Virus record (IMG/VR): IMGVR_UViG_3300046779_001442
Location: 1 to 64,000 of that record
DNA length: 64,000 bases
Direction: 5' to 3' (one strand)
Source: a virus
Shown here: piece after piece, positions 18,553 to 54,855 of the stretch
Numbering within the stretch: position 1 is the stretch's first letter
Layout: each line of letters starts with the position of its first letter
The notes under the pieces: model-generated
What the model was told of the DNA's origin: nothing
The model's input: only the letters and a program-made list of their open reading frames with translations
Database searches by the model: none
Made by a program: the position numbers and the translations under genes

Positions 18553-19032
18553 ATGCTAGGTTCATTCGGTTTATGGGCATCTTCCAAGGGTATGAAAGTA
18601 GTTTCAAACCTTGTAGGACAGACTCGTGATGCAGCAAAATCTCAGATTGTGTCTGACGGCTTTATTGTAGGAACCGAAACACCACAGAACTTTACTAATT
18701 CATCTGATGAAGACAAACATGACAAGATTGTAGATCAAACACCAGATGCTGGAGTTTCTGCACAATACGAGTCTCCAGTAGATTTGGTTTATGGAGTCTT
18801 TAGCTTCTCTGTATTTGGAGTTTTTGGATTCTTTAGTGTGTTTAACTTCTTCAGCGTATTTAATTTCTTTAGCGTATTTAATTTCTTTAGTGTATTTGGC
18901 TTCTTTAGCGTGTTTAGCTTCTTTTCCGTATTCGGATTTGCCTTCTCAGTATTTAGCTTCTTCTCCGTATTTGGATTCTCGTTCTCAGTGTTTAACTTTA
19001 CGCCAACATTCTCAGTATTTGGATTTAGATAG
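18553..19032 (+). CDS. PASTA-like domain protein with Phe-rich FFSVF(G/N) repeat tail
   Basis: V-x-NLVG-x-T-x2-AA...GF-x-V...IVDQTP-x-AG...VDL is PASTA-like. About 75 C-terminal residues are F/S/V/G/N repeats ending FSVFGFR. Confidence 0.75.
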   Translation: MLGSFGLWASSKGMKVVSNLVGQTRDAAKSQIVSDGFIVGTETPQNFTNSSDEDKHDKIVDQTPDAGVSAQYESPVDLVYGVFSFSVFGVFGFFSVFNFFSVFNFFSVFNFFSVFGFFSVFSFFSVFGFAFSVFSFFSVFGFSFSVFNFTPTFSVFGFR

Positions 19033-19585
19033 CATCAATATATCTCACGTAAGAGATATCGCTATAGTTTCCACCAAATCGCTTTATGTCGTCAATTGCT
19101 GTTCTTTTTCCAGGGGCAGGAGAGTGAATCATCTTGCCATTTCCAATGTATATACCAACGTGGTACGCCTTTGAACTATTTTCATAATGGAATGCAACAA
19201 TGTCTCCAATAGCAGGTTCTGATACCTTATCTCCGCCAAGGGCCTGAGCAGTTGCTCTATGTTCTAAGCTAATGCCAAGTTGCTCATAGAACCACATGGT
19301 GAGGCCAGAGCAGTCCCATCCAGACGGAGTATGACCAGAAAATACATAGTATGTTTTGTTAACATATTTCTCTAGTTTAGATATTGCATTAGATATCTTT
19401 TTTGAATTTGCAGCTTTTTCAGCCTTCTTAATACTATCTGCTAAAAGCTTTTGTGCTTTTACAGAATCATATTCTGTTACGTATTCGTAACGAACTGGAT
19501 CTTCAGCTTTAGCTGGGGCTATAGAAGTTGTTAGTAAAAGTAATGTAGATGTGGCAAAGCCAGCAATTTTAATAGTTTTATTCAT
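19025..19585 (-). CDS. Secreted NlpC/P60 cell-wall peptidase
   Basis: Signal peptide (AKA site), YVFSG-x-TP-x-GWDCSG, GDIVAF, HVGIYIGNGKMIH. Confidence 0.95.
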   Translation of the reverse strand: MNKTIKIAGFATSTLLLLTTSIAPAKAEDPVRYEYVTEYDSVKAQKLLADSIKKAEKAANSKKISNAISKLEKYVNKTYYVFSGHTPSGWDCSGLTMWFYEQLGISLEHRATAQALGGDKVSEPAIGDIVAFHYENSSKAYHVGIYIGNGKMIHSPAPGKRTAIDDIKRFGGNYSDISYVRYIDAI

Positions 19586-19821
19586 AAAACTACCTCCTTA
19601 TTTTTTATGTTGTTACGACCCCTGTCACAGGTCCTGGCAGACAATATTCTTTACAGCTGTAGCCTTGAATATACTTGTCTATAGTCTCTCACGATTGTCA
19701 CGTTGTTGTCACTCTGCTTGATCATTTTTGCCTATATGAACAAAAAGTACCCCGAAAGGTACCATTAGATTATAACATGTTTTTGCCTCTTTTTCAACAA
19801 CAAGTCTGGTATACTATTGTT

Positions 19822-20334
19822 ATGGCAACTGGAAGATCCAACAACTACAACCTACCCTTCCCACTAGCAGCAGATGCTGTTAATGTGCATGGAGACATAA
19901 AAAGCCTAACGGAAAGGCTAGATGCTGTGTTGCCACAAGCATCTTATGTAGATATTCCAGTAAAAAATGTATCTTCTGATATTATTCCTGCAGGATACCC
20001 AGTAACAATAACTGGGCATGACGGAACTAACGTATTGGTTGCAAAAGCAACAGCATCAACTACAACATCTATCTTAGGCTTAACAAGGACAGAAATTCTT
20101 GTTTCAGCTACAGGAGTTGTTGTTGTAGCTGGTGTCATAAACTCAATTAATACATCTTCATATAATCCAGGAGACATACTTTATGTTGCTCAAAACGGTG
20201 GGTTGACAAGTCAGAATGATGGAACCCAAGGAACTGCAATTGCAACAGTTGTTTATCCAGCAGTTAGTGGAGCGATTATTGTTGGCTCTAAATCAAATGC
20301 AACATGGGGATCACTTAAAGCTGGTCTTTCATAA
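19822..20334 (+). CDS. Putative virion protein (capsid-fibre-like)
   Basis: Leaderless ATG after TGGTATACT; G-x-V-x3-G...GD-x-LYV-x3-GGLT motif. Confidence 0.6.
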   Translation: MATGRSNNYNLPFPLAADAVNVHGDIKSLTERLDAVLPQASYVDIPVKNVSSDIIPAGYPVTITGHDGTNVLVAKATASTTTSILGLTRTEILVSATGVVVVAGVINSINTSSYNPGDILYVAQNGGLTSQNDGTQGTAIATVVYPAVSGAIIVGSKSNATWGSLKAGLS

Positions 20335-20354
20335 TTTAATGATATAATAAAACT

Positions 20355-21510: not shown

Positions 21511-22911
21511 ATGGCAACAGTCACTAAAGACTTTAAGGTTAAGAGTGGTCTGATTGTTGAAGGTGCTACAGCTACCGTCAATAACCACGATATTCTAACC
21601 AAGAAGCAAGATGACCAAGATTACATTGTCAACCTTATTGGTGGTACAGCAACCTCAGCAAATACTCCAAATACCGTTGTAAAGCGTGACGGAAGTGGAG
21701 ACTTTTCAGCAGGAACTGTAACAGCAGATTTGGTTGGTGACGTAACTGGTAACGTAGTAGGAAACGTAACTGGTGATGTAACTGGTACAGTTTCAAGCTT
21801 GGCAAATCACGACACAGATGATCTTGCAGAAGGAACAAATCTTTACTTTACATCACAGAGAGCAGTAACTGCTAACACTGGTCTCTGGGATAACGTAGGC
21901 TCTGCAGATGCAGCTCAGACAGCAGCACAGGGATATGCAGATGGCGTAGCTCTTACTGCAGAGAATAATGCAAAAGCATATGCAGATGGCCTAGCTACCA
22001 ATTATGATGTAGCAGGAGCTGCAGCAGCTGCACTTACAAGTGCAAACACTTACACTGATACAGCTGTAGCAAACCTAGTTGATTCAGCACCTGCGATGCT
22101 TGACACTCTTAATGAGTTGGCAGCTGCAATTGCTGATAATCCAAACTATGCATCAGATGTAACAAATCTTATTGCAACAAAGGCAGATACAACATATGTA
22201 GATTCTCAGGATTCCGCAACTTTGACATCTGCTAATAGCTATGCTGATGGACTTGCAGTCAACTATGACGTAGCAGGTGCAGCAAGCACAGCTCAGACCA
22301 ATGCAGAGGCATATGCTTCTAACTTGGTCGGACAGGAGGTGATTGACCGTGACGCTGCAATTTCAACTGCTATCAATGCACTTGATACAGACGATATTGA
22401 AGAGGGTACAGTCAATCTATATTTCACAAATCAGAGAGCTATTGATGCCGTAGGTGGAACCATTGGTGACGCTATAGACTTGCTGACAACAGACGACATT
22501 GAAGAGGGAACCTCCAACCTCTACTTTACAGATGCTCGTGCTGTGTCAGCTCTTGAGGCAGTAGTTCCAAACTTTACAGAAATTGATATCAATTCTGTAG
22601 CAACACAGGTTGCAGCTACTCAAACAGTAGCCACTGCAAGCCAGGTAGTTGCACATCAGTTTGCGAACACAACACACCGCTCAGCTGAGTACACAGTTAA
22701 GGTAGCCTATGGAACTCACACAGAGCTTTCAAAGGTAATGATTACACTTGACTCAACAGATAACGTAGCAATTACTGAGTATGCAGTTGTTGGAACTAAT
22801 GGTTCTGCATCAACAATTTCTGCAGATGTAAATGCTGGTAACGTAAGATTACTTGTTACAACAGCTAACAATAACTCTATCGTTACTGTAGTAGGAACAC
22901 TTATCGCTTAA
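21511..22911 (+). CDS. Tail fibre-like protein
   Basis: Three TDD-x2-EG-x(1-2)-NLYFT repeats, AP-x2-LDTLNELA, and A-x2-YADGLA-x-NYD repeats. Confidence 0.8.
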   Translation: MATVTKDFKVKSGLIVEGATATVNNHDILTKKQDDQDYIVNLIGGTATSANTPNTVVKRDGSGDFSAGTVTADLVGDVTGNVVGNVTGDVTGTVSSLANHDTDDLAEGTNLYFTSQRAVTANTGLWDNVGSADAAQTAAQGYADGVALTAENNAKAYADGLATNYDVAGAAAAALTSANTYTDTAVANLVDSAPAMLDTLNELAAAIADNPNYASDVTNLIATKADTTYVDSQDSATLTSANSYADGLAVNYDVAGAASTAQTNAEAYASNLVGQEVIDRDAAISTAINALDTDDIEEGTVNLYFTNQRAIDAVGGTIGDAIDLLTTDDIEEGTSNLYFTDARAVSALEAVVPNFTEIDINSVATQVAATQTVATASQVVAHQFANTTHRSAEYTVKVAYGTHTELSKVMITLDSTDNVAITEYAVVGTNGSASTISADVNAGNVRLLVTTANNNSIVTVVGTLIA

Positions 22912-22933
22912 GATAATTAAAAGGAGTATGTAG

Positions 22934-23395
22934 ATGGCAACAGTAAACAAGGATTTCAAAGTAAAAAACGGAATCCAGGTAGCAGGTAGTGGTGTCTTCG
23001 GTGGCCCAATAGTTGCTGCTGACCCAACTGATGATACACACGTCGTAACACGTGGATATCTTAATGCTAACGCATCTGGCATTACTGTTGCCTCTACTGC
23101 CCCTGAAAATCCAACAGCAGGTAAAATGTGGTTTGATACCACAACAAAAAGAATTAACATCTATGATGAAACTGATGGATGGCTAACTGTAGCAAATGTT
23201 GATGATACTCTCAATTTGACACAGCACATTCACGATACATCTGTGGGTGGAACTGGATTGATCACAACAACATTCCGTGAAGGTGGTTCAATACCAGCAA
23301 GCCCTATGTCTAGTGGAATTGATGGCGGTAGCCCATCATCAACTGAGTTTACACTCATCTTTGATGGTGGATCTGTAACTGATAATTTTAACTAA
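22934..23395 (+). CDS. Putative fibre-associated protein
   Basis: Shares the N-terminus MATV-x-KDFKVK-x-G with 21511 and has DGG repeats. Confidence 0.7.
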   Translation: MATVNKDFKVKNGIQVAGSGVFGGPIVAADPTDDTHVVTRGYLNANASGITVASTAPENPTAGKMWFDTTTKRINIYDETDGWLTVANVDDTLNLTQHIHDTSVGGTGLITTTFREGGSIPASPMSSGIDGGSPSSTEFTLIFDGGSVTDNFN

Positions 23396-25134: not shown

Positions 25135-25962
25135 ATGGCAGCAGGTAAAAGAGCAGGTAGACACTCTCAGCAGTCAAATGACTTTTTAGAGCCACATGCA
25201 CCAGTTAACGTAGGTGCAACAGATGTTGGAACTAACAGAGCATACAATGACGGTGCTGCCACAGTAACTTTTGAGTTGCCTGCTAACTCACCAGCTGCAA
25301 CATCGTATACAGTAACAGCAACACCTACCGCAGGTGGCTCTTCAATGACTGCATCTGGATCTTCTTCTCCAATCACAGTATCTGGACTTGCGTCTGACAC
25401 TGGATATTCAATTTCTGTGACTGCATCTAACGCTTCTGGATCTTCAGCTGCATCATCTTCAGTTTCTATTACTGCAACAACCGTTCCAGCTGCACCTACT
25501 AGTGTCAGTGCGTCATCTCCAAGCGGTGCATCATATGATACAGTATCTTGGTCTGCACCAGCCAATGGTGGCAAAGCAATTACTAATTATTACATCACTT
25601 CTGATGATGGAAAGTCTGGAAATACATCTGGAACATCTATAGATATTAGCCAAGAGCAAGGAACTTCTCAAACATATACGGTATATGCTGATAACGCAAA
25701 TGGTAGATCTGCTGCCTCAGCAGCATCTAACCAGGTTTCAACATTTTCCTTTGTGCCATTCTCAGTATTTGGCTTCTTCTCAGTATTTGGATTCTTCTCA
25801 GTATTTGGGTTCTTCTCAGTATTTGGATTCTTCTCAGTATTTGGATTTGTTCCTTTTAGCGTATTTAGCTTCTTTGGAGTATTTGGATTTGGACCATTTG
25901 GAGTGTTCGGATTTATTCCATTTGGAGTTTTCGGATTCTTCGGGGTATTTGGGTTTAGATAA
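25135..25962 (+). CDS. Tandem fibronectin type III protein with Phe-rich FFSVFG repeat tail
   Basis: Two FN3 repeats (SYTVTA...V-x-GL-x4-Y-x3-V-x-A-x-N; VSWSAP-x-NGG-x2-ITNY...Y-x-V-x-A-x-N-x2-G-x-S), then about 70 aa of F/S/V/G/P repeats ending FGVFGFR. Confidence 0.85.
   Translation: MAAGKRAGRHSQQSNDFLEPHAPVNVGATDVGTNRAYNDGAATVTFELPANSPAATSYTVTATPTAGGSSMTASGSSSPITVSGLASDTGYSISVTASNASGSSAASSSVSITATTVPAAPTSVSASSPSGASYDTVSWSAPANGGKAITNYYITSDDGKSGNTSGTSIDISQEQGTSQTYTVYADNANGRSAASAASNQVSTFSFVPFSVFGFFSVFGFFSVFGFFSVFGFFSVFGFVPFSVFSFFGVFGFGPFGVFGFIPFGVFGFFGVFGFR
25756..25848 (+). repeat. 18-bp tandem repeat TTCTTCTCAGTATTTGGN
   Basis: About five near-identical copies encoding FFSVFG. Confidence 0.85.
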
Positions 25963-26013: not shown

Positions 26014-26673
26014 ATGTATAAAGATCAAACACCTCTGAGAAGCATTAGCAAGACCACTCAGGGACATAAATTCTTTGAACGCTATCTAGATAATGACCTT
26101 GCAAAGCTAACAGAAGAGCTTCAGGCTAGATACGAACTTATTGAACAGGCAAAACTTCCAGGTGTAACACCAGTAAGCCCATTTGAGGCATGGAAAGACT
26201 CTAACAGTATCTCAACAATGAAGTGGAGACAGTATAACGTTTTCCAGTTCCATATCGATGGTATTTATGAATTATATAAAGCCGTTGGAGATATGGTAAG
26301 AGAGGCATGCGAACATTACGAGCTTGACTTTGATGAACAAAAGTTTATGATTCAGGGATGGTTTAATATTAACCACTCTGGCAATGGAAAACTTAATTGG
26401 CATGAGCACGGTGGCCCAGGTGCACCAGATTTTCATGGGTACTATTCTGTAGCTGCAGAACCATCGTCTACACACTATATCGTGTTCGATGACGAGGTAG
26501 AAAATGTTAATAAGAATAATCGTGCCATCTTGTCTGAAATGGGACATCCACATGCAATGGGTGATTGGGACTGGGATGGTCCAAGAATTACAGTAGCATA
26601 TGATGTTACACCTTTAGAGTACCTAAAGCGTGGAGGATCTGCAGTAGAGCAGCACTGGATTCCACTTAGATGA
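26014..26673 (+). CDS. Putative Fe(II)/2OG oxygenase, TIGR02466-like (paralog 1)
   Basis: GWFNIN...WHEH...FHGYY...GHPHA...PRITVAYD: double-stranded beta-helix pattern with HxH...H and a distal Arg. Confidence 0.7.
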   Translation: MYKDQTPLRSISKTTQGHKFFERYLDNDLAKLTEELQARYELIEQAKLPGVTPVSPFEAWKDSNSISTMKWRQYNVFQFHIDGIYELYKAVGDMVREACEHYELDFDEQKFMIQGWFNINHSGNGKLNWHEHGGPGAPDFHGYYSVAAEPSSTHYIVFDDEVENVNKNNRAILSEMGHPHAMGDWDWDGPRITVAYDVTPLEYLKRGGSAVEQHWIPLR

Positions 26674-27338
26674 TTGCAATGACTAAGCCACCGCACAAGT
26701 TCTTTGATCGTTATTTAGATAATGATTTGGAAAGCCTGACACAGTATCTTCTAGAAAAGAGAAAGTGGATATATGAAAACGGCATTGGTGCACCAGAAGA
26801 TGTTTTTAAGGAAAAGCGTGAACGTGGCGATAGCCTAGTTACAATGCTTGGAGACTATTATAATATCTTTACATGGGACAATCCAGCTATTAAAGAGCTC
26901 TACGATGGCTTAGTCATCACAACAAAAGAAGCATGCGATTACTATGGAATAGACTTTGACAAAGCTGATTACCATATTTGCGGATGGTTTAATGTAAATG
27001 AAAATGGTACAGTTTACTCTGGAGAGTCTCCTTTAGATCATCCAGAATGGTTTCACGATCACATGCATGGCATAGGGGCTCCAGTATTTCATGGATACTA
27101 CTGTGTGAACGCAGAGCCTTCATCCACCTACTATCATATAAATAAAGATAGAAACAATTTGTTTGAAAATGTCAATAAAAACAATAGGCTTGTAGTTTCA
27201 GAAACTGGTCATCCACACGCAATTGACAATTGGTCTTGGGATGGTCCAAGAATTACTATTGCCTATGACATTAGTCCAAAGAACAAGGATTTTATTAATC
27301 ATGATTTTGTTGGAAGCCATTGGATAAAGTTGGGATAG
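26670..27338 (+). CDS. Putative Fe(II)/2OG oxygenase (paralog 2)
   Basis: GWFNVN...FHDH...FHGYY...GHPHA...PRITIAYD. Confidence 0.7.
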   Translation: MIAMTKPPHKFFDRYLDNDLESLTQYLLEKRKWIYENGIGAPEDVFKEKRERGDSLVTMLGDYYNIFTWDNPAIKELYDGLVITTKEACDYYGIDFDKADYHICGWFNVNENGTVYSGESPLDHPEWFHDHMHGIGAPVFHGYYCVNAEPSSTYYHINKDRNNLFENVNKNNRLVVSETGHPHAIDNWSWDGPRITIAYDISPKNKDFINHDFVGSHWIKLG

Positions 27339-27339
27339 T

Positions 27340-27987
27340 ATGAAGGATCATAAATTTTTTATTCGTGACATAGATAATGACATAGAGTCACTCTTGTCGT
27401 GGACTTTAGATTTGAATGAAAGACTAGTCTCTGGAAATCTAGTAGAGCTAGACAAATCCATGCTTGATGCATACAAGGATAGTTCATCTGGAGCAGGTAC
27501 CGCCTTTCTTTCACACTACAATATTTTTGAGATGGGCAACCCACAAATTGAAAAGCTAAAAAATGCAATCCATGATGCCCTAAAAGAGGCATGTATCTAT
27601 TATGAAATAGATTATGATGCTGAAGATTGGTACCTACACGGCTGGTTCAACAAAAATGCTAAAGAAGATATGTGGGATGTCTCTCCTATTGATAATCAAG
27701 ATAAGTGGCACGAACACATGAATGGTGTTGGAGCACCAGTGTTTCACGGATACTACTGTGTAAATGCAGAACCTTCTGTAACCGTGTATCAAGTATTTAA
27801 AAATCCAGAAAATATAAAAGTAAATGTAAATAAAAATAATCGTTTAGTTGTTTCAGAAGTTGGTCATCCTCATGGCATGGGAAACTGGAGAGTTGATGGT
27901 CCAAGAGTAACCATTGCTTATGATATTGCACCAAGAGCCTATATTAGCGACGAGGATGCACAAGCATGGACAAGGCTTGAAAAATGA
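27340..27987 (+). CDS. Putative Fe(II)/2OG oxygenase (paralog 3)
   Basis: GWFNKN...WHEH...FHGYY...GHPHG...PRVTIAYD. Confidence 0.7.
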   Translation: MKDHKFFIRDIDNDIESLLSWTLDLNERLVSGNLVELDKSMLDAYKDSSSGAGTAFLSHYNIFEMGNPQIEKLKNAIHDALKEACIYYEIDYDAEDWYLHGWFNKNAKEDMWDVSPIDNQDKWHEHMNGVGAPVFHGYYCVNAEPSVTVYQVFKNPENIKVNVNKNNRLVVSEVGHPHGMGNWRVDGPRVTIAYDIAPRAYISDEDAQAWTRLEK

Positions 27988-28142
27988 AAAACTGGATATT
28001 AAGAATAAAATGTTTTATATCTGGTCATAAGGTTATTAAGGGTAACGCCTGTCCAGTAACTGGTATGGTTAGATTAGACTGTATAACTTGTGGTGGATCA
28101 AATATGCCAAAACATGTAGATAAGGTTGGAATGTTTCAATGA
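27984..28142 (+). CDS. Small Cys/His protein (52 aa)
   Basis: MKNWILRIKCFISGHK...CPVTG...CITCG; ATGA overlaps with both neighbours. Confidence 0.65.
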   Translation: MKNWILRIKCFISGHKVIKGNACPVTGMVRLDCITCGGSNMPKHVDKVGMFQ

Positions 28143-28666
28143 GTAAGACGGATGATATTAAGTATATTAAGGGCTTCATGCCAGCTGATATAGCTAAAGC
28201 AATTTACGAGTATTCTGTAAAAAATGATGAATTTTTTGATGAATTTGGCAATGGAGAAAAAGAGTTTAGGGTTAATGTGTTTAAAAAGTCTGATGAAGAA
28301 ACACTGGCCATGAAAAATCTAGTAACAGAGTGGGGCAAAAAAGTGTATGACTTTGTGCTAGACACATATGGTCCAAGGTTCTACGAATATGATGAGACAA
28401 AATCACATATTGCAAGATTTGAACCAGGCTGGGGTATGCATGAGCATTTTGATGCTAGCAAGCCAAACGATATAGCAACATTAATATATATAAATAATGA
28501 TTATATTGGTGGAGATATCTATTTCCCAGAATATGGAATTTCTCACAAGCCAGAGCCAGGAGACCTCTTAACTTTTCCAGACAATCCAGATTACGTGCAT
28601 GGGGTAAGAGCAATATCTGATGGAATTCGTTATACAACTCCACGCTGGTTTACACGTATAGTATGA
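28139..28666 (+). CDS. Prolyl-4-hydroxylase-like Fe(II)/2OG oxygenase
   Basis: H-F-D...LIYINNDYIGGDIYFP...P-x-PGDLLTFP...HGV...G-x-RYT. Confidence 0.9.
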   Translation: MSKTDDIKYIKGFMPADIAKAIYEYSVKNDEFFDEFGNGEKEFRVNVFKKSDEETLAMKNLVTEWGKKVYDFVLDTYGPRFYEYDETKSHIARFEPGWGMHEHFDASKPNDIATLIYINNDYIGGDIYFPEYGISHKPEPGDLLTFPDNPDYVHGVRAISDGIRYTTPRWFTRIV

Positions 28667-28681
28667 TAAAATATATATACA

Positions 28682-31600
28682 ATGACAGCCTCACTCAGCC
28701 TATACTCATCCAAAATCATCAAGGAACACCCCCTTGGTCTTTGGCCACTGCAAGACAAATGTGACTACCTGTCCATACTTAATTCTTCTCAGAGGGATTT
28801 AACTTCTTGGAGCTTAGATGGTGGACAGATGTCATATACATCTACACTAACAACCCCAATTCCAGAAGAGCCAGTTTACAGAATTGACTCAGCACATGTT
28901 GGTGCCTCTAACGTAAGAATGGTAAGGCTGAATAGCGAGGTTATTGGAAACTTTTCGTCTATAAACGAGTATCTAGCTACATTTACGCTATCAACCTTTT
29001 TATACTCTTCTACCGACAGCATTCTCTCTGCAACTATTGGGTTTGCATATACTGATCCAACCTATGGCGAGTATCGTGTATTTAAACGTTTTCCGCTGTC
29101 AGTTGCAGGTAAATGGGTATTCTTATCAGAAACATTTGATAGACCATATGACATTAATTCTGAATACTATCTTTTTATAGAAATTGAGTTTCTATCTAAT
29201 AAGACCACAGATCCAGTGCTATTTTTGCTAAATGGACTTTCTCTTGGCCAATGGACAGAAGAGTTTAACTCATCATCTTCGGGTGTTGTTCCAGAGACCG
29301 TAGTTGGCTCTATATATGGATTGCCAGATAATTCTAAGGCAGTAAAACTTCTTGCATCAGCAGAAGCCACTAAAGATGGATATGCAATTGTCGCAGACAA
29401 TCAACTAAAGGCAAGAAATTCTGGTATGCCGATGGTATATGGGTCAGACTCTTCGATGACAATATATCCAAATGGATCTAGTCCATCTATAGTTATACCT
29501 GGCTTGGGTTTTATGAATAGAGTTGGTCAGTACAAGAACTACACTATCGAGGCATGGATCAAGATAAGCCCATCTGGATACTCTGAGTCAAAGATATTTG
29601 GACCAGTCGCATCTTCTGATGGAATATATGTTGATGGACCATTCTTAAAGCTTAAGGTGGGGGATTATTCAATTTCACACTATGTCTCTGAATGGTATAG
29701 ACCAATGTTGGTGCACATATCGATATCATCAGACAGAATTGTTATGCTTTTGAATGGTGAGCAGGTAGGTCAGATATTGGTAAATAGATCAGATCTTGTT
29801 TTTCCAGAAGAAGTGCTAAATGGAAAAGAGCAAGACTGGCTGGGATTCTATTCTAATGACTCAATCGATATATTTGAAATTGGACCAGTGTCAATATACA
29901 CATATGTTATCTCAAATGCTATTGCTAAGAGAAGATGGATATTTGGGCAAGGGGTAGACAATCCAGAAACTTTAAATGTTGCATATGGTGGAAAGAACAT
30001 ATATTTTGACTACCAATTTGCCAAATATTCATCAAACTATTCTTATCCAAAAATTGGTTCATGGTCTAGCGGAATATCTAACAACTTGTCAAGCGATACG
30101 GACTACTTAAAGATTCCAAGCTTTAAGAGTATGGAGCTGGTGGTCCCCGAACAAACACAGTCAGAGTTTTTAAAAAATAGTAAGAGTATCCAAAACGAAG
30201 ATTCAAAATTTATATCTTTGCCAAATAATGCATATGGATATTTTGAAAATCTAAATATTTTAAAAGACGGCGTAGAGTCTATTTATGTAACTTTTAAGTC
30301 TATATCTGCACCAACAGAACTAAGGCAGACCCTCATAGAGCTAAGAGATAAAACAACTGGAGACTACTTATCAGTGTCGTTGTCTGGTTCTGGCATTGAG
30401 TACAAGCTAAGGTATCTTGGACAAACCGAAGTTCTTGGAACAACTCAGCAATACTATCCAGGAGAAAAATTTTCTATAGGTCTTCACATAAAAAGATTTG
30501 CAAGTTATTTTGGAAATGCTGCAGCAACATTTTTAAGTAAAAAAGATTCTTTGGCACTCTATGTTGGCGGTACTGGTTCTTCAGACTCTTTTATTGGAAA
30601 CATATATTCTATATCTTTTAACAATCAGTTTGCTACCAAGAAAATAGAGGATTATTTTGCTCCAAATGGAATTGTGTGGGATGCAGAGCTGGTTGAGTCA
30701 ATGCTTGCAGATGCGGATGCTGGACTATATAGTACAACATTTTGGGAATTTGTTCTGGATGGTGGACAGGTTGCAGAATATGCAGGCATAGGTCTTATCG
30801 ATAATGCAAACACTAGCTATACCATAAAACCATACGAAAATAGTTCTACTATGTATCTAGATGGAGTAATGAATGGTTCTTGGAAGTCTGCCCTACCACT
30901 TTCATATTTCGGAAAAAATGTAACTAACTCAAAGGGTATCCAGTACTACGATCTTGATTTTATACAGTTTAATATTGGATATCCATCACCTGGAAGATCG
31001 ATTGCTGTTACAGAAACCGATGCTTCGTGGAGCTATCAAGACTTAGCACTTAAATTTTCTTCCCCATCTCAGAAAAAGTATAGTGACCTAGATAACCATC
31101 TATATACTGGATATATTGATTACACTGATTTAAAGAATAATTCTAGACAAACATATAAACTAGATACTTCGGGGTCAATTGTAAAAAGCTATATATATTT
31201 TAAAGATATCTCGCAAGATGTTGAGGACGATTCATACTACACAAATATTGCGATGGCACCAAAAGATGGAATGTTAAGTCCAGGAGAAGAATGGATAAAC
31301 ACCAAGTATGAGATTGTAGATGGAATGATAATCTATCCACCTACCAATGTTAGTTTTGCACAAACTGTGATGGTTACAGAGATAGTTGTATCAGCGGAGC
31401 ATATATCTGATAAGCCTTTGGCAATCAGCACACTAGAGCTTTCGTCAATTGCACTTAATGATGAAACTCCAACGCCAATTGGAACTAGATACGGAACTGA
31501 CATCTATCCCTTTACAGAAAATGGCTTTTATTATGACTATAAGTCTCCAAATCCATTTTCAATATATAAAGGCAGCACACCATACCTATATTTGACTAAA

Positions 31601-32335
31601 AATAGTGGTATAAGGCTAAAGGGTGCATTTAATAATAAAAATGTTCGAGGCATAGACATCCCAGTAAATAGTGAAAAGACAAATAATCATAAAATGATTG
31701 CTATGCAAATGTTTGCAATGTATGATGATGACTTTTTCCCATATAGTCCGACAGAAATTTTTGAGATAATATCAAATACCTCACACCTAAAATTCTATAT
31801 TGAGGCAACACACCCAGACGGACTAAGAGGTAAAATATATGCTATCAATGACAAAACTGGTCAGCTTGAAAATGGTGTTGGATATTACATTAATGGCAAA
31901 GTTGTTAAAGACCCAGTGCTGACAATAAAGCAATGGGCATCATTAGGTATAGGTTTTTCTAACTACCTAGATTTTTCTAATAATGGTGGATCAATTAGAA
32001 TAACAGGTCCAATGCTTATTAATAATATATCTCACTATAACTCTGTAAGATTGCAGCAAGTTCAAAATATCTCTGTTAGACCATGGTTCCTAGTAAAAGA
32101 GTCTGGAAGAGTCAAATTTGATTGGCGATATTGGGACGGAATATTCAAGTGGTTCGAAGTGCTCGTGCTTTCGTCTAGAAATTTCTACGGTATTGACCCA
32201 TCCGATATATACAAGTCATACGTTGGAACTACCAGAATAATTATTGATGACAAGTCAATATTAAGGCTATTAAGGTCAAAGTATAGGGCAATAACAAACT
32301 CTAATAGGCAAACTACAACTATTAATGCTGTTTAA
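28682..32335 (+). CDS. Large virion protein with LamG/concanavalin-like domain
   Basis: 1217 aa; N-terminal HPLGLWPL and a YTIEAWI...W...H...LNGEQV LamG-like segment. Confidence 0.65.
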   Translation: MTASLSLYSSKIIKEHPLGLWPLQDKCDYLSILNSSQRDLTSWSLDGGQMSYTSTLTTPIPEEPVYRIDSAHVGASNVRMVRLNSEVIGNFSSINEYLATFTLSTFLYSSTDSILSATIGFAYTDPTYGEYRVFKRFPLSVAGKWVFLSETFDRPYDINSEYYLFIEIEFLSNKTTDPVLFLLNGLSLGQWTEEFNSSSSGVVPETVVGSIYGLPDNSKAVKLLASAEATKDGYAIVADNQLKARNSGMPMVYGSDSSMTIYPNGSSPSIVIPGLGFMNRVGQYKNYTIEAWIKISPSGYSESKIFGPVASSDGIYVDGPFLKLKVGDYSISHYVSEWYRPMLVHISISSDRIVMLLNGEQVGQILVNRSDLVFPEEVLNGKEQDWLGFYSNDSIDIFEIGPVSIYTYVISNAIAKRRWIFGQGVDNPETLNVAYGGKNIYFDYQFAKYSSNYSYPKIGSWSSGISNNLSSDTDYLKIPSFKSMELVVPEQTQSEFLKNSKSIQNEDSKFISLPNNAYGYFENLNILKDGVESIYVTFKSISAPTELRQTLIELRDKTTGDYLSVSLSGSGIEYKLRYLGQTEVLGTTQQYYPGEKFSIGLHIKRFASYFGNAAATFLSKKDSLALYVGGTGSSDSFIGNIYSISFNNQFATKKIEDYFAPNGIVWDAELVESMLADADAGLYSTTFWEFVLDGGQVAEYAGIGLIDNANTSYTIKPYENSSTMYLDGVMNGSWKSALPLSYFGKNVTNSKGIQYYDLDFIQFNIGYPSPGRSIAVTETDASWSYQDLALKFSSPSQKKYSDLDNHLYTGYIDYTDLKNNSRQTYKLDTSGSIVKSYIYFKDISQDVEDDSYYTNIAMAPKDGMLSPGEEWINTKYEIVDGMIIYPPTNVSFAQTVMVTEIVVSAEHISDKPLAISTLELSSIALNDETPTPIGTRYGTDIYPFTENGFYYDYKSPNPFSIYKGSTPYLYLTKNSGIRLKGAFNNKNVRGIDIPVNSEKTNNHKMIAMQMFAMYDDDFFPYSPTEIFEIISNTSHLKFYIEATHPDGLRGKIYAINDKTGQLENGVGYYINGKVVKDPVLTIKQWASLGIGFSNYLDFSNNGGSIRITGPMLINNISHYNSVRLQQVQNISVRPWFLVKESGRVKFDWRYWDGIFKWFEVLVLSSRNFYGIDPSDIYKSYVGTTRIIIDDKSILRLLRSKYRAITNSNRQTTTINAV

Positions 32336-52500: not shown

Positions 52501-53848
52501 ACAAACCCCAACTGGATCTATGGGATATTACCAAGATGGTAAGGTTGGTGGAGCTTCTGGCGGATTAGCAGTTATGTTAAATTCAGCCACCAACAACGGA
52601 TACTATTTTGAAATCATGGCACTAACTGGAGACACAGTTCTTGGAGAAGAAGATGTTATTCTCAATAACGTAGTTTTTTATAAGATTAAGTCTGACTCTA
52701 GTGGCAATGCTGTTCCAGTTAGACTATGGTCTGGAATTGCAAATATAGTAGTAGATTCTGGAAATTTTGCAGGGCAGTCAAGAACAAACACACAAGAAAA
52801 TCCATCAGTATATGACCTAGCTATAGAGTACGAAGAAGTCGATAAAAGATCTGCAAGAAGATTCTACCTATACATAAATAATAAGTGTGTGGCAATTATT
52901 GATGATACAGACCCTCTACCAGCATATCAAAATATTGCACCATTCATTCGTGGCACATCAAGAGTAATGTTTGAAAACATTTATGCCCTTGCAAAGAAAT
53001 ACTCTGTAGATGCTGCTGGTAGCTTGTCAACACCAATTAATTCAGTATTTGGAGATAGTTCAGTTGATGTATCAGAGTCAATGAGAAAATATGCTTTATC
53101 TGGTGCAGTGCAAAAGACATATTTGTCAGACATTAATGGACAACAGGGACCAGGATACGACATGTATTTTGAAGAGTTCGGTACTATTATGCGTGAGGCA
53201 GCATACTTTAATATTAAGTTTGACAAGGCATATCCAGCACTAAGTGCTAAAATATCTCCAACATTCAATAAGGTTAAGGGATATACAGTTTCTGGCTTTA
53301 TGCCAAATGCATATGGTGCAGAGTTTTTAGTATTTAACCATACCGATAGTGTTATAAGTCTTGATGAGACTACTGGAAACTATCTAAGAATTCAGGGCGT
53401 AACCTTTACTCAAAACTCAGATAGAAAGCTAACTCTAGACGACTATTATAAGTATAATAGCGACTTATCAAATGTTGACCATGTTGTATCAGGAACAAAC
53501 TCACCGTTTAAGGCAGAGAAAGAATTTTTTGATATCAAGGCAAGTCGTGCAACATATGGTACGAATGAGTTTTCTCTTAATGCTAAGTATATTCAGACAG
53601 AAGATGCTGCTCGTGATCTTATGGGTTGGGTGATTTCAAAAACTATTAAGCCTAGAAAATCAGTTGGTATGAATGTGTTTGCTGGATCTGTGCTGCAATT
53701 GGGAGATATTGTTCAGATTTTTTGGACTGATGATGACGGAACAGATCAGCTGTTTGATAGAAACAAGAAGTTTGTGGTGTATAGTATTGACTATACGATT
53801 AGTCCAAATGGGCCAACTTCGACTGTATATGTTAGTGAGGTAATCTAA
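49589..53848 (+). CDS. Large tail tip / baseplate hub protein
   Basis: About 1419 aa; EVLQDIA-x5-IFLDE-x-NNL and C-terminal LQLGDIV-x-I...V-x2-I-x-Y hub motifs. Confidence 0.7.
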   Translation: MFGNKTLLSHLEKSSNVSISSAIFAEWNMNIPQNFAKIGNYRYRPTSSSIYQTILSSYDKYDTGNFYTGATDADITIDGGIDDDDQPLAFTSPKEQTKLLFSLEECFNKFRPRSGINKAKYFADRYFHYSDKDMAKRPRYYVATKGDAFKYWTSDRTEDGIRGVSYPVRVGNFTNYFIDDAAPFIVYSESVPANRIVVKMQTHIGTINKGPFLSPAGTTLADPFYGQENSKTPTKWRIQYLDENDTWVDAAVFLPTDKRIDGTPIVGPDGYVEVYYGAIIPSEYSSIFNYKRSFVSAQMIPLSPDVGSAYLVKSSATDPGRFYIYTSSGYQSFAAKYGWSLSQTEVLDFRNTVDATASSEYFVDPLSGKKNYSKYQHINGIRVVVDQMNTTNSSFDLIEMSPRLVLDFTGMVESCNVTKSMSDLGNAGMPVGQLLASVGSLSMFDYNEVFNENNKTSVISKYLDQIIKFMIYERITDKSGNQYLVPIKFMYSANKPSLSATTRDLSIELRDLTFWFEQSMSPELFMVDVSMSVAISTLLDSIGFSNYKFLRMDGEKDLIIPYFYTSSEQSVMEVLQDIAVSTQSAIFLDEENNLIVMSKDYLLPSSSLPRATDMILSGEKTNLIDANIEDIAVQESKVFNGGTINYQEKYIQRSYGSIKQSSMIDRNKTWIYKPALLWEASGSLNTKSQNGQLTNQSAYSLAAIPLNSTLPATIPSVVNGSIINNIIDFGEGVYFTTRYNGYFFANGEIVRYDAVEYSMTGQAAPVWIQSTQEYSNYFQQLKFGGTMYPTGRVRIYCEPKYEVVNGVTRFKDGAVNKHGRGQFGTPIVAHEAGLSSVWTNSDGSNPTRGCKMSFSELLSFDETTAQTKSKSLSTGAAGVANSTVVSASRSGIIRNSLSGNYKTDAQINQLKITEFGTVQSSALVFNGPNFTTDVKATDHISYIPKNLNRTYSHFGTRMRIIGRAENGTNKLQTPTGSMGYYQDGKVGGASGGLAVMLNSATNNGYYFEIMALTGDTVLGEEDVILNNVVFYKIKSDSSGNAVPVRLWSGIANIVVDSGNFAGQSRTNTQENPSVYDLAIEYEEVDKRSARRFYLYINNKCVAIIDDTDPLPAYQNIAPFIRGTSRVMFENIYALAKKYSVDAAGSLSTPINSVFGDSSVDVSESMRKYALSGAVQKTYLSDINGQQGPGYDMYFEEFGTIMREAAYFNIKFDKAYPALSAKISPTFNKVKGYTVSGFMPNAYGAEFLVFNHTDSVISLDETTGNYLRIQGVTFTQNSDRKLTLDDYYKYNSDLSNVDHVVSGTNSPFKAEKEFFDIKASRATYGTNEFSLNAKYIQTEDAARDLMGWVISKTIKPRKSVGMNVFAGSVLQLGDIVQIFWTDDDGTDQLFDRNKKFVVYSIDYTISPNGPTSTVYVSEVI

Positions 53849-54855
53849 TGGCAGAAAAACCAAAGGCATCACCAAAAGCTTTATTGCCAACACTTAAACC
53901 AGTTACAACTGGCGTACCAAAGTCTTTGCAAAAGCCAGCTCTGACCTTACAGCAACAGTCTGATAGATCTAGAACAGCATCACGAGCTGCATTTCAAGCT
54001 TCTCCAGCAAAGAAAGAAAGAAATAAAGCAACTCAAAGCGTAATAGCTGCAAATAAAAAAGTTGATCAACTAAAAGCTTCTGCTAATGCTCCAGGGCTAA
54101 CTGCTCAGCAAAAATCAGATAGGATGCGTACTCTTGGTAGGGCACAAAATCAACAGTCAAAAGCAAAGGCTAACCTTAACAAAATAACTGGATATAAGAA
54201 ACCAGTAAAAAAGAGTGATCCAGTCAACACCAAGCCAACAAAGCCAAAAACTACAAAACCAAAGACTACAAAACCAAAGACCACAAAACCAAAAACTACT
54301 AAACCACAAACTGGTAACAATTCTACACTGCCACAAACTACGTCCCCAGTTGATGCTACGGAAAATCCTGTAGTTTCTGCTACCCCAGAGTCTCCATCTC
54401 CAGGAGTTACTTCAGAAGCAGAAAGTGTAAAGACCTATAAGCCTGCTACTCCAGATTTGATTCAGTTACAGGAAGACGAATTTCCAGTAGAGATTATTAC
54501 AGACTTGTTGTTTGAGGATATTGGCGGTACAGAAATTTTAAATTTAGCAAGGCATGACCTTGTGAGTGGTATAGATATAAAATATCAGCAAATATCAAAT
54601 CTTTCCAAGATTGAGGCTGTGTATGGTGGAGCAAACTTGGTTGCACTACAAAACACATCTGAACAAGTGTTTAGTAAATATCCACTCAGAAGATATCAAT
54701 TTATACCAACAGTCACAGATGATCCATCTGGACTAAATAGCCATGTCTACCTTGATGCTGCTGGAGACTTGGTGATAGAGCTAATCAACATAGACAACTC
54801 ATACCAAATAGAGGTAGAGTTCCAGGCAGCAGACATTAATGATATAATATATTGA
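53848..54855 (+). CDS. Putative tail protein with Lys-rich low-complexity N-terminus
   Basis: KPKTT repeats followed by a globular-looking C-terminus (LLFEDIGG-x-E). Confidence 0.7.
   Translation: MAEKPKASPKALLPTLKPVTTGVPKSLQKPALTLQQQSDRSRTASRAAFQASPAKKERNKATQSVIAANKKVDQLKASANAPGLTAQQKSDRMRTLGRAQNQQSKAKANLNKITGYKKPVKKSDPVNTKPTKPKTTKPKTTKPKTTKPKTTKPQTGNNSTLPQTTSPVDATENPVVSATPESPSPGVTSEAESVKTYKPATPDLIQLQEDEFPVEIITDLLFEDIGGTEILNLARHDLVSGIDIKYQQISNLSKIEAVYGGANLVALQNTSEQVFSKYPLRRYQFIPTVTDDPSGLNSHVYLDAAGDLVIELINIDNSYQIEVEFQAADINDIIY

Follow-up and report, generated by a model that had tools for sequence, protein, structure and literature searches.

Two proteins encoded in the fibre-gene block of a lake phage carry unrelated N-terminal domains, a PASTA domain in ORF A and FN3 domains in ORF B, and end in the same phenylalanine-rich repeat and the same residues, V-F-G-F-R. 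Both open reading frames are present, as the preliminary description of this DNA had stated. They lie in a window of 64,000 nucleotides, the whole stretch of DNA analysed here, which forms the first 64 kb of a 110.9 kb record that is complete according to CheckV. The results directly support the domain architecture of the two proteins, the conservation of the repeat at the protein level, the Hint fold that follows the repeat in relatives, the pairing of the two genes and the synteny of the block. We propose, tentatively and with somewhat less than even confidence, that the repeat is a hydrophobic stalk or tether specific to this lineage, its C-terminus being either free or processed, which would associate both adhesin-like proteins in a virion appendage. 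The features of the two genes are:

18553-19032, plus strand: ORF A, 159 aa, with an N-terminal peptide, a PASTA domain, a Phe-rich tail and a terminal Arg
18553-18597, plus strand: N-terminal peptide of ORF A, M-L-G-S-F-G-L-W-A-S-S-K-G-M-K, conserved among homologs
18598-18789, plus strand: PASTA domain, ORF A aa 16-79, identified with Pfam PF03793, AlphaFold and Foldseek
18799-19029, plus strand: Phe-rich tail of ORF A, aa 83-158 and Arg159, with 11 core units F-x-V-F-x-F
25135-25962, plus strand: ORF B, 275 aa, with a basic N-terminal peptide, two FN3 domains, a Phe-rich tail and a terminal Arg
25246-25728, plus strand: FN3 domains of ORF B, the best Pfam stretch at aa 38-111 and an FN3-like stretch at about aa 112-198
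25744-25959, plus strand: Phe-rich tail of ORF B, aa 204-274 and Arg275, with 10 core units

The ATG of ORF A is preceded by a Shine-Dalgarno-like GGTGGA, and the gene is intact in independent lake assemblies, with 3-7 base differences and no gaps. Its aa 16-79 match PF03793 with 27 bits (curated cut-off 23.2), as do most of its homologs, of which a protein search found 39. The AlphaFold model reaches a pLDDT above 90 over the PASTA part (aa 11-85), and the closest PDB structures found with Foldseek are the PASTA domains of PrkC, PknB and PonA2 (TM up to 0.78). PASTA is a peptidoglycan-sensing fold known from PknB and PBP2x. In the N-terminal peptide, G3, G6, K12 and G13 are invariant among 19 homologs and the pLDDT is low at aa 1-10; we consider it a possible docking peptide. 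ORF B matches PF00041 (fn3) with 44.1 bits (cut-off 25) in two stretches, its aa 112-198 weakly match the minor tail protein family phrog_6977, and P0039 is a homolog. On the minus strand, a gene for an NlpC/P60 peptidase (19025-19585), whose signal peptide is of the Gram-positive type, converges on ORF A and overlaps its stop codon by 8 nt; of 79 related loci, 11 have such a gene beside ORF A. In two other lake samples, contigs fuse position 19031 to 20340 via 10 other bases, a junction that points to strains without the NlpC/P60 gene and the gene that follows it, and to the stop codon of ORF A as a module boundary.

The two tails are closely alike in composition. Phenylalanine makes up 45% of the 77-residue tail of ORF A and 42% of the 72-residue tail of ORF B, the GRAVY score is +1.5 in both tails and about -0.3 in the heads, and the only charge in each is the C-terminal Arg. 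The units of ORF A are mainly hexamers, FFSVF[GNS], without a linker. The unit reads F-x-V-F-(G/S)-F and is joined to the next by a linker of 0-3 residues, usually x-Pro. In a set of 604 units taken from 73 distinct proteins, F occupies positions 1, 4 and 6 in 100% of units, and V occupies position 3 in 99% although the search pattern also permitted I, L and F there. Position 2 is variable (G, S, N, A, T or R, with K, R and Q tolerated), and position 5 is G in 56% and S in 31% of units, followed by T and N. The commonest linkers are S-P (181), none (69), T-P (49) and T-P-A (38). That Phe and Val are almost never replaced at these positions speaks for specific packing or recognition rather than for hydrophobicity alone.

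Several observations argue that the repeat is kept as protein. The variety of codons noted in the preliminary description is borne out by our counts, with Ser in ORF A encoded by AGC (6), AGT (2), TCA (3), TCC (2), TCT (1) and TCG (1), and Val by GTA (8), GTG (3), GTC (1) and GTT (1). The Ser codon of the FFSVFG unit belongs to the AGY family in ORF A and is TCA in ORF B. Against seven relatives (L001-L008), synonymous differences outnumber replacements in both tails under an alignment of the repeats that is itself flexible; between ORF A and L001 the codon changes without a change of residue at 23 positions, against 13 replacements, and between ORF B and L002 the figures are 32 and 10. By the same comparison the tails are at least as conservative as the folded heads. 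This excess of synonymous over replacement differences indicates purifying selection on the protein. Together with the codon variety, the different Ser codons of the two tails and the intact ORF A of independent lake assemblies, it shows the tail to be a module that is translated and conserved, in agreement with the earlier claim. The accompanying claim that DNA slippage plays no part stands for the motif, which is held as protein, but not for the arrays, which expand and contract through duplication. The 18-bp units are 82% identical within the array of ORF A and 95% within that of ORF B, and copy number ranges from 3 to 17 across relatives; the high unit identity in ORF B and this range indicate that the arrays evolve by duplication. 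In run X5, one low-depth contig shows net changes of -78 nt and +165 nt in the ORF B array (25778-25886), both in frame. A neutral low-complexity expansion through slippage, or a tail that is never translated, could draw on the near-identity of the ORF B units, on the unstable copy number in relatives, on an array length that differs in one contig from another lake sample and on a second frame that is open through the array. We nevertheless regard it as very improbable, as the motif is retained where PASTA domains are only 34-45% identical, its F and V positions do not vary, synonymous differences prevail, ORF A and ORF B draw on separate Ser codon families, relatives have folded domains before and after the repeat in one continuous frame, and the array-length changes observed are in frame.

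The repeat had also been described as a portable module. Our searches do not agree with this, as it is confined to two gene families of one phage lineage, a PASTA type and an FN3 type that lie 6-10 kb apart in a conserved fibre-gene block. A scan of viral contigs found the PASTA/FN3 pair kept in about 80 related lake-phage contigs (79 loci), a recurrence that rules out chance. In a six-frame scan of the 110.9 kb genome, ORF A and ORF B were the only Phe-rich repeat ORFs; a third match, on the minus strand at 54.2 kb ('VFGFV'), was rejected as the antisense of a TKPK repeat. The ORF concerned (53848-54855, plus strand) contains a (TKPKT)n Lys/Pro/Thr repeat at about 54200-54300, the antisense of which mimics a VFGFV repeat. 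In five complete relatives the pattern occurs only at the known pair sites, in one of the five at a single one of them. Among 185,579 species genomes, a two-unit DNA pattern gave 27 stretches, of which the 4 real ones lie on three MAG contigs, all of this phage family, and a scan of cellular genomes with the pattern of the N-terminal peptide gave zero matches. Within 50,697 phage records, positions 17-27 kb had no megablast match, and ORF A and the head of ORF B had no tblastn match, in a search whose low-complexity filter may mask matches to the tail only; the two genes appear to be absent from the cultured phages searched. A phmmer search of 1.84 billion representatives with the tail alone returned three unrelated repetitive proteins, under composition filters by which the known homologs were missed too, and a word-based tail search of longer proteins found none, which is weak evidence. 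The tail had no match in Pfam, NCBIfam or PHROGs and no usable look-alike in the ESM Atlas (every TM below 0.36). The Phe-rich repeat belongs to no annotated family and has no structural model.

AlphaFold monomers likewise leave the repeat without a fold, with a pLDDT of 29-45 overall, relative L027 included, and of 35-45 in the tail of ORF A, so that a beta-type stalk is unsupported by any model. Units of 6, 7, 8 and 9 residues are mixed inside one protein, and such variable linker lengths disfavour a regular solenoid. A left-handed beta-helix of hexapeptide repeats (PF00132 type) was rejected, as there was no Pfam match at E values up to 0.1, no solenoid in the AlphaFold models and no regularity of the units. 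A sortase-type C-terminal sorting signal was also rejected, since no LPXTG-like motif precedes either tail; the hydrophobic stretch of the window proteins is 70-77 residues long, against about 20 for a sortase-type signal.

The preliminary description treats the repeat as a tail, but across the family it is not primarily a terminal tag. In sister lineages it precedes a C-terminal Hint domain, Cys-rich domains or long multi-domain arrays. What comes after it in more distant relatives is a domain of 163-177 residues, a short Cys-rich domain, an ending ...FNFAPWG, or long arrays in which PASTA, FN3 and WSxWS/Cys-rich modules alternate with further Phe-repeats. The PASTA-type proteins of L065-L079 and L051-L070 have Cys-rich W-S-x-W-S / W-x-x-W modules between their Phe-repeats, reminiscent of thrombospondin type-1 repeats, and some of these relatives reach 842 aa, with two PASTA domains, one FN3 domain, several Phe-repeats and a Ser-type Hint domain. 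The FN3-type protein at L077:17036-17980 carries a (FPFFP)n Phe-Pro polymer instead of F-x-V-F-x-F, and then a small Cys-rich end.

Profile comparison and structure prediction identify the C-terminal domain of 163-177 residues as a Hint domain, of the bacterial intein-like kind. When a profile built from 22 sequences was searched against the PDB, it matched the bacterial intein-like domain (BIL) 2lwy of Clostridium thermocellum (E=9.7e-6) and the Pho RadA intein (E=4.2e-5); Pfam matches of single sequences were sub-threshold only. In the AlphaFold model of the L027 protein the Hint part has a pLDDT of 80-92, and its top Foldseek matches are exclusively BIL, intein and Hedgehog structures (TM 0.70-0.75). 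The first residue of the domain is Cys in 17 and Ser in 5 of the 22 relatives aligned. Its endings include VVHN-A, THN-K, VYN-A, VYH-L and THD-G; the residue that follows is never C, S or T, and 1-15 residues follow in all. A true, splicing intein was rejected, as the domain is followed by no Cys, Ser or Thr at the +1 extein position. A C-terminal Hint domain without a downstream splice nucleophile leads us to predict cleavage at the junction between repeat and Hint rather than splicing. Of the block-B motif T-x-x-H, the canonical His is present only in L063 (TVEH) and in the L058 type (SPNH), and the largest subgroup has S-x-x-E in its place. The S-x-x-E relatives are thus no more than candidates for self-cleavage.

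The point at which the window proteins end is consistent with this prediction. ORF A and ORF B have no Hint domain and both stop directly after the repeat; their neighbours are the convergent NlpC/P60 gene and an oxygenase-like cassette, so there is no Hint remnant in the window. In three lineages (L019, L063 and the FN3 protein of L023) an Arg immediately precedes the Hint Cys, and the terminal Arg of the window proteins holds the same position. A tree of the PASTA heads groups all Arg-ended forms into one clade (support 95/92), and Hint-bearing forms fall into three or more lineages, found to either side of a midpoint root, which is no true root. This distribution suggests that the Hint domain was lost in the clade of the window proteins, whose genes now code straight for the 'mature' product.

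For the repeat the preliminary description offered three roles, an amyloid-like polymerisation tag, a membrane anchor and a modification tag. The strong hydrophobicity of the tails raises the question of whether they insert into a lipid bilayer together with the terminal Arg, be it to anchor the protein by its tail in the infected cell or to form a hydrophobic tip that penetrates the host envelope during adsorption. The GRAVY score of +1.5 and the sole charge at the C-terminus would suit such an anchor, the tails of the shortest homologs (P0023, P0028) are about 25-28 residues long and correspond to one membrane span, and Hint domains of the Hedgehog type are known to leave the newly formed C-terminus joined to a lipid. 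Yet the repeats of relatives lie between PASTA, FN3, WSxWS/Cys-rich and Hint domains, and membrane spans at these positions would place alternate domains on opposite sides of the membrane. The repeat often contains Gly, Ser and Pro and its Val does not vary, in contrast to the interchangeable V, I and L of transmembrane helices. There is also no signal peptide, and the genes sit in a structural gene block. An insertion into the membrane or envelope is therefore improbable in our judgement.

Within a genome, the two tails are more alike than tails taken from different genomes. Their 5-mer Jaccard similarity is 0.315 within the same genome and 0.12 between different genomes, and in the Arg-ended clade tail lengths correlate (Spearman 0.86, n=11; from 18/28 and 27/36 up to 93/82 residues), in statistics that ignore phylogeny and may reflect two or three independent events. 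In L027, L037 and L052 the order of the variable residues is nearly identical between the paired tails. Such co-variation within genomes fits a common partner or co-assembly. As the tails appear to co-evolve in each genome, the likeliest arrangement would be that they bind to one another or to a shared partner.

The surroundings of the two genes are those of a tail-fibre block. Genes next to ORF A and ORF B have matches in families of minor tail proteins and tail fibres and in Mtd_N, and farther downstream lie genes for the portal, a protease, the capsid, a tape measure of 2364 aa and a minor tail protein of 1430 aa. Two adjacent fibre-like ORFs (21511-23395, plus strand) have a common N-terminus, M-A-T-V-(T/N)-K-D-F-K-V-K, which may be a shared attachment peptide of the module's fibre proteins. 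An ORF of 1217 aa (28682-32335, plus strand), between the cassette and the portal gene, had no PHROGs or NCBIfam match. The phage carries a WhiB gene, its capsid protein is 44% identical to those of Streptomyces phages of about 130 kb, its DNA has a GC content of 39.6%, and the region is present in metagenomes that several studies obtained from freshwater. Taken together, these four observations indicate that the host is probably a low-GC freshwater actinobacterium. Directly after ORF B lies the oxygenase-like cassette:

25978/26014-26673, 26670-27338 and 27340-27987, plus strand: three paralogous oxygenase-like genes
28139-28666, plus strand: 2OG-Fe(II) oxygenase (PF13640), the last gene of the cassette, conserved in synteny

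The three paralogs match phrog_2696, a family of unknown function; they had no Pfam or NCBIfam match, and a dedicated search of the genome with PF13759 was also negative. Their nearest clusters in the ESM Atlas, found by language-model features, consist to 88-90% of PF13759 (2OG-FeII_Oxy_5) proteins. The last gene, g28139, matches PF13640, a prolyl-hydroxylase-type family, with 27.2 bits (cut-off 27) and with 28.6 bits in a genome-wide search, and four such genes occur in the 110.9 kb genome. Beyond the window, positions 70465-70764, 96311-96487, 105737-105970 and 110179-110421 hold the three further PF13640 genes and the WhiB gene. This load of 2OG oxygenases is unusual for a phage of 111 kb. 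The cassette begins 26-89 nt after the FN3-repeat gene in all 17 unique loci with at least 1.5 kb downstream, irrespective of the C-terminal type, and the PASTA gene adjoins it in 0 of 40. At L077, the FN3-type gene has only a PF13640-like gene about 1 kb downstream, without the three paralogs. Between 25960 and 26014, the GTG given as the start codon of the next ORF comes in frame after the TAA of ORF B, GTGTATAAT resembles a -10 promoter element, and the ESM Atlas entry of the first cassette protein starts at residue 13, the Met encoded at 26014. For the cassette, a promoter of its own and a start at 26014 are probable.

Judged from this adjacency, the cassette is a candidate modifier of the repeat. 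The repeat might then be a scaffold for modification, the dedicated substrate of the oxygenase-like enzymes encoded after the FN3 gene, in which x-Pro linkers or other residues are hydroxylated and perhaps glycosylated afterwards, to give a hydrophilic mucin- or extensin-like stalk. The position of the cassette in 17 of 17 unique loci, the assignment of g28139 to PF13640 in a genome with four such genes, the likeness of the three paralogs to PF13759 in language-model features and the prevalence of S-P and T-P among the linkers all lend this circumstantial support. Adjacency in a single phage lineage may, however, be inherited synteny, the PASTA gene never lies next to the cassette, and HMMs assign the three paralogs to no oxygenase family. 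Moreover, the tail of ORF A has one Pro and units mostly without a linker, and prolyl hydroxylation therefore cannot be essential to the module. On balance we consider such a scaffold possible but doubtful, and it could be compatible with a stalk or tether. A broader form of the idea makes the repeat a purpose-built substrate for the maturation of phage virion proteins: the cassette would hydroxylate it, the Hint domain would release or transfer its end, and the Arg-ended forms would be derived, 'pre-cut' versions. Here the Hint domain of those relatives that bear one would free the end of the repeat via a thioester or ester, or transfer it covalently to a nucleophile of the virion or the cell wall. 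We think this unlikely, though not negligibly so.

The stalk or tether remains the reading that we prefer, and it has several parts. ORF A and ORF B would be accessory proteins of the fibre (minor-tail-protein-like) block, each with a short peptide conserved at its N-terminus, a small adhesion-type domain or two, and the lineage-specific Phe-rich repeat, the latter serving as an extended hydrophobic stalk or tether. The C-terminal end of the repeat would be the end of the mature protein. In sister lineages, the Hint domain would cut itself off at its invariant Cys/Ser +1 and so probably make this end, and in the clade of the window proteins the genes would simply end at the Hint cut point (...FGFR). 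The tails may then bind each other, or a common partner in the virion appendage, via self-associating beta-type segments packed through Phe and Val. Location in the virion, self-cleavage, the mechanism of self-association and the direction of Hint loss are the conjectural parts of this model. A further feature that stands against a stalk is that the binding domains would lie at the virion-proximal end, an unusual polarity for a fibre.

A literature search found no description of a Phe-rich phage repeat or of PASTA in phage tail proteins, nor of a Hint/BIL domain on a protein of a phage fibre module behind a Phe-rich repeat; a mention of 'Hint' in phiCbK was set aside as a precedent, being an ordinary terminase intein. 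Phage appendage proteins decide host recognition, and we know of almost no experimentally studied phages of the abundant low-GC freshwater Actinobacteria. The Hint domain in relatives, the cassette after the FN3 gene and the PASTA domain on one partner offer three routes to experiment. If the readings that involve modification or ligation are true, the widespread orphan 2OG oxygenases of phages would gain a function and a concrete target, and Hint chemistry would join phage assembly.

Several known systems share part of this arrangement. Collagen-like Gly-X-Y repeats and the triple beta-helix octapeptide repeats of T4 gp5C form the stalks of fibre proteins in phages, actinophages among them, and are likewise repeats of short period and variable copy number between an attachment end and distal domains; they have no counterpart to 42-45% Phe with an invariant Val, and no model or profile links them to the present repeat. 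The FG-repeat nucleoporins contain cohesive Phe-Gly repeats and, as in the window tails, F-G dipeptides abound in a stretch to which AlphaFold assigns no fold. Their repeats are separated by long hydrophilic spacers, whereas the spacers here are 0-3 residues long and the region is wholly hydrophobic. The prolyl 4-hydroxylase of the chlorovirus PBCV-1 acts on the virus's own Pro-rich repeats, so that there, too, 2OG oxygenases of the prolyl 4-hydroxylase type and repeat proteins with regularly spaced Pro occur in one virus; the link to a substrate is only a candidate here, and the tail of ORF A is almost without Pro. Phage tailspikes and fibres such as the K1F endosialidase and the T5 L-shaped fibre carry C-terminal domains of the Peptidase S74 type, which are autoproteolytic intramolecular chaperones. 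Such a domain aids the maturation of a repeat-rich appendage and is then cut off, which leaves the repeat region as the mature C-terminus, but it is a Ser-Lys dyad protease, in contrast to the thioester or ester chemistry expected of the Hint domain in the relatives described here. We found no Pfam match to S74, and a chaperone role of the Hint domain is suggested by analogy only. A further parallel is with BIL and Hedgehog-type Hint domains (2lwy, 6y75, 1at0), as relatives of both window proteins share their fold and the Cys or Ser first residue and, as in Hedgehog, carry the domain at the C-terminus. They differ in the block-B Glu of the largest subgroup, and the window proteins themselves are without the domain and stop at the predicted cleavage site.
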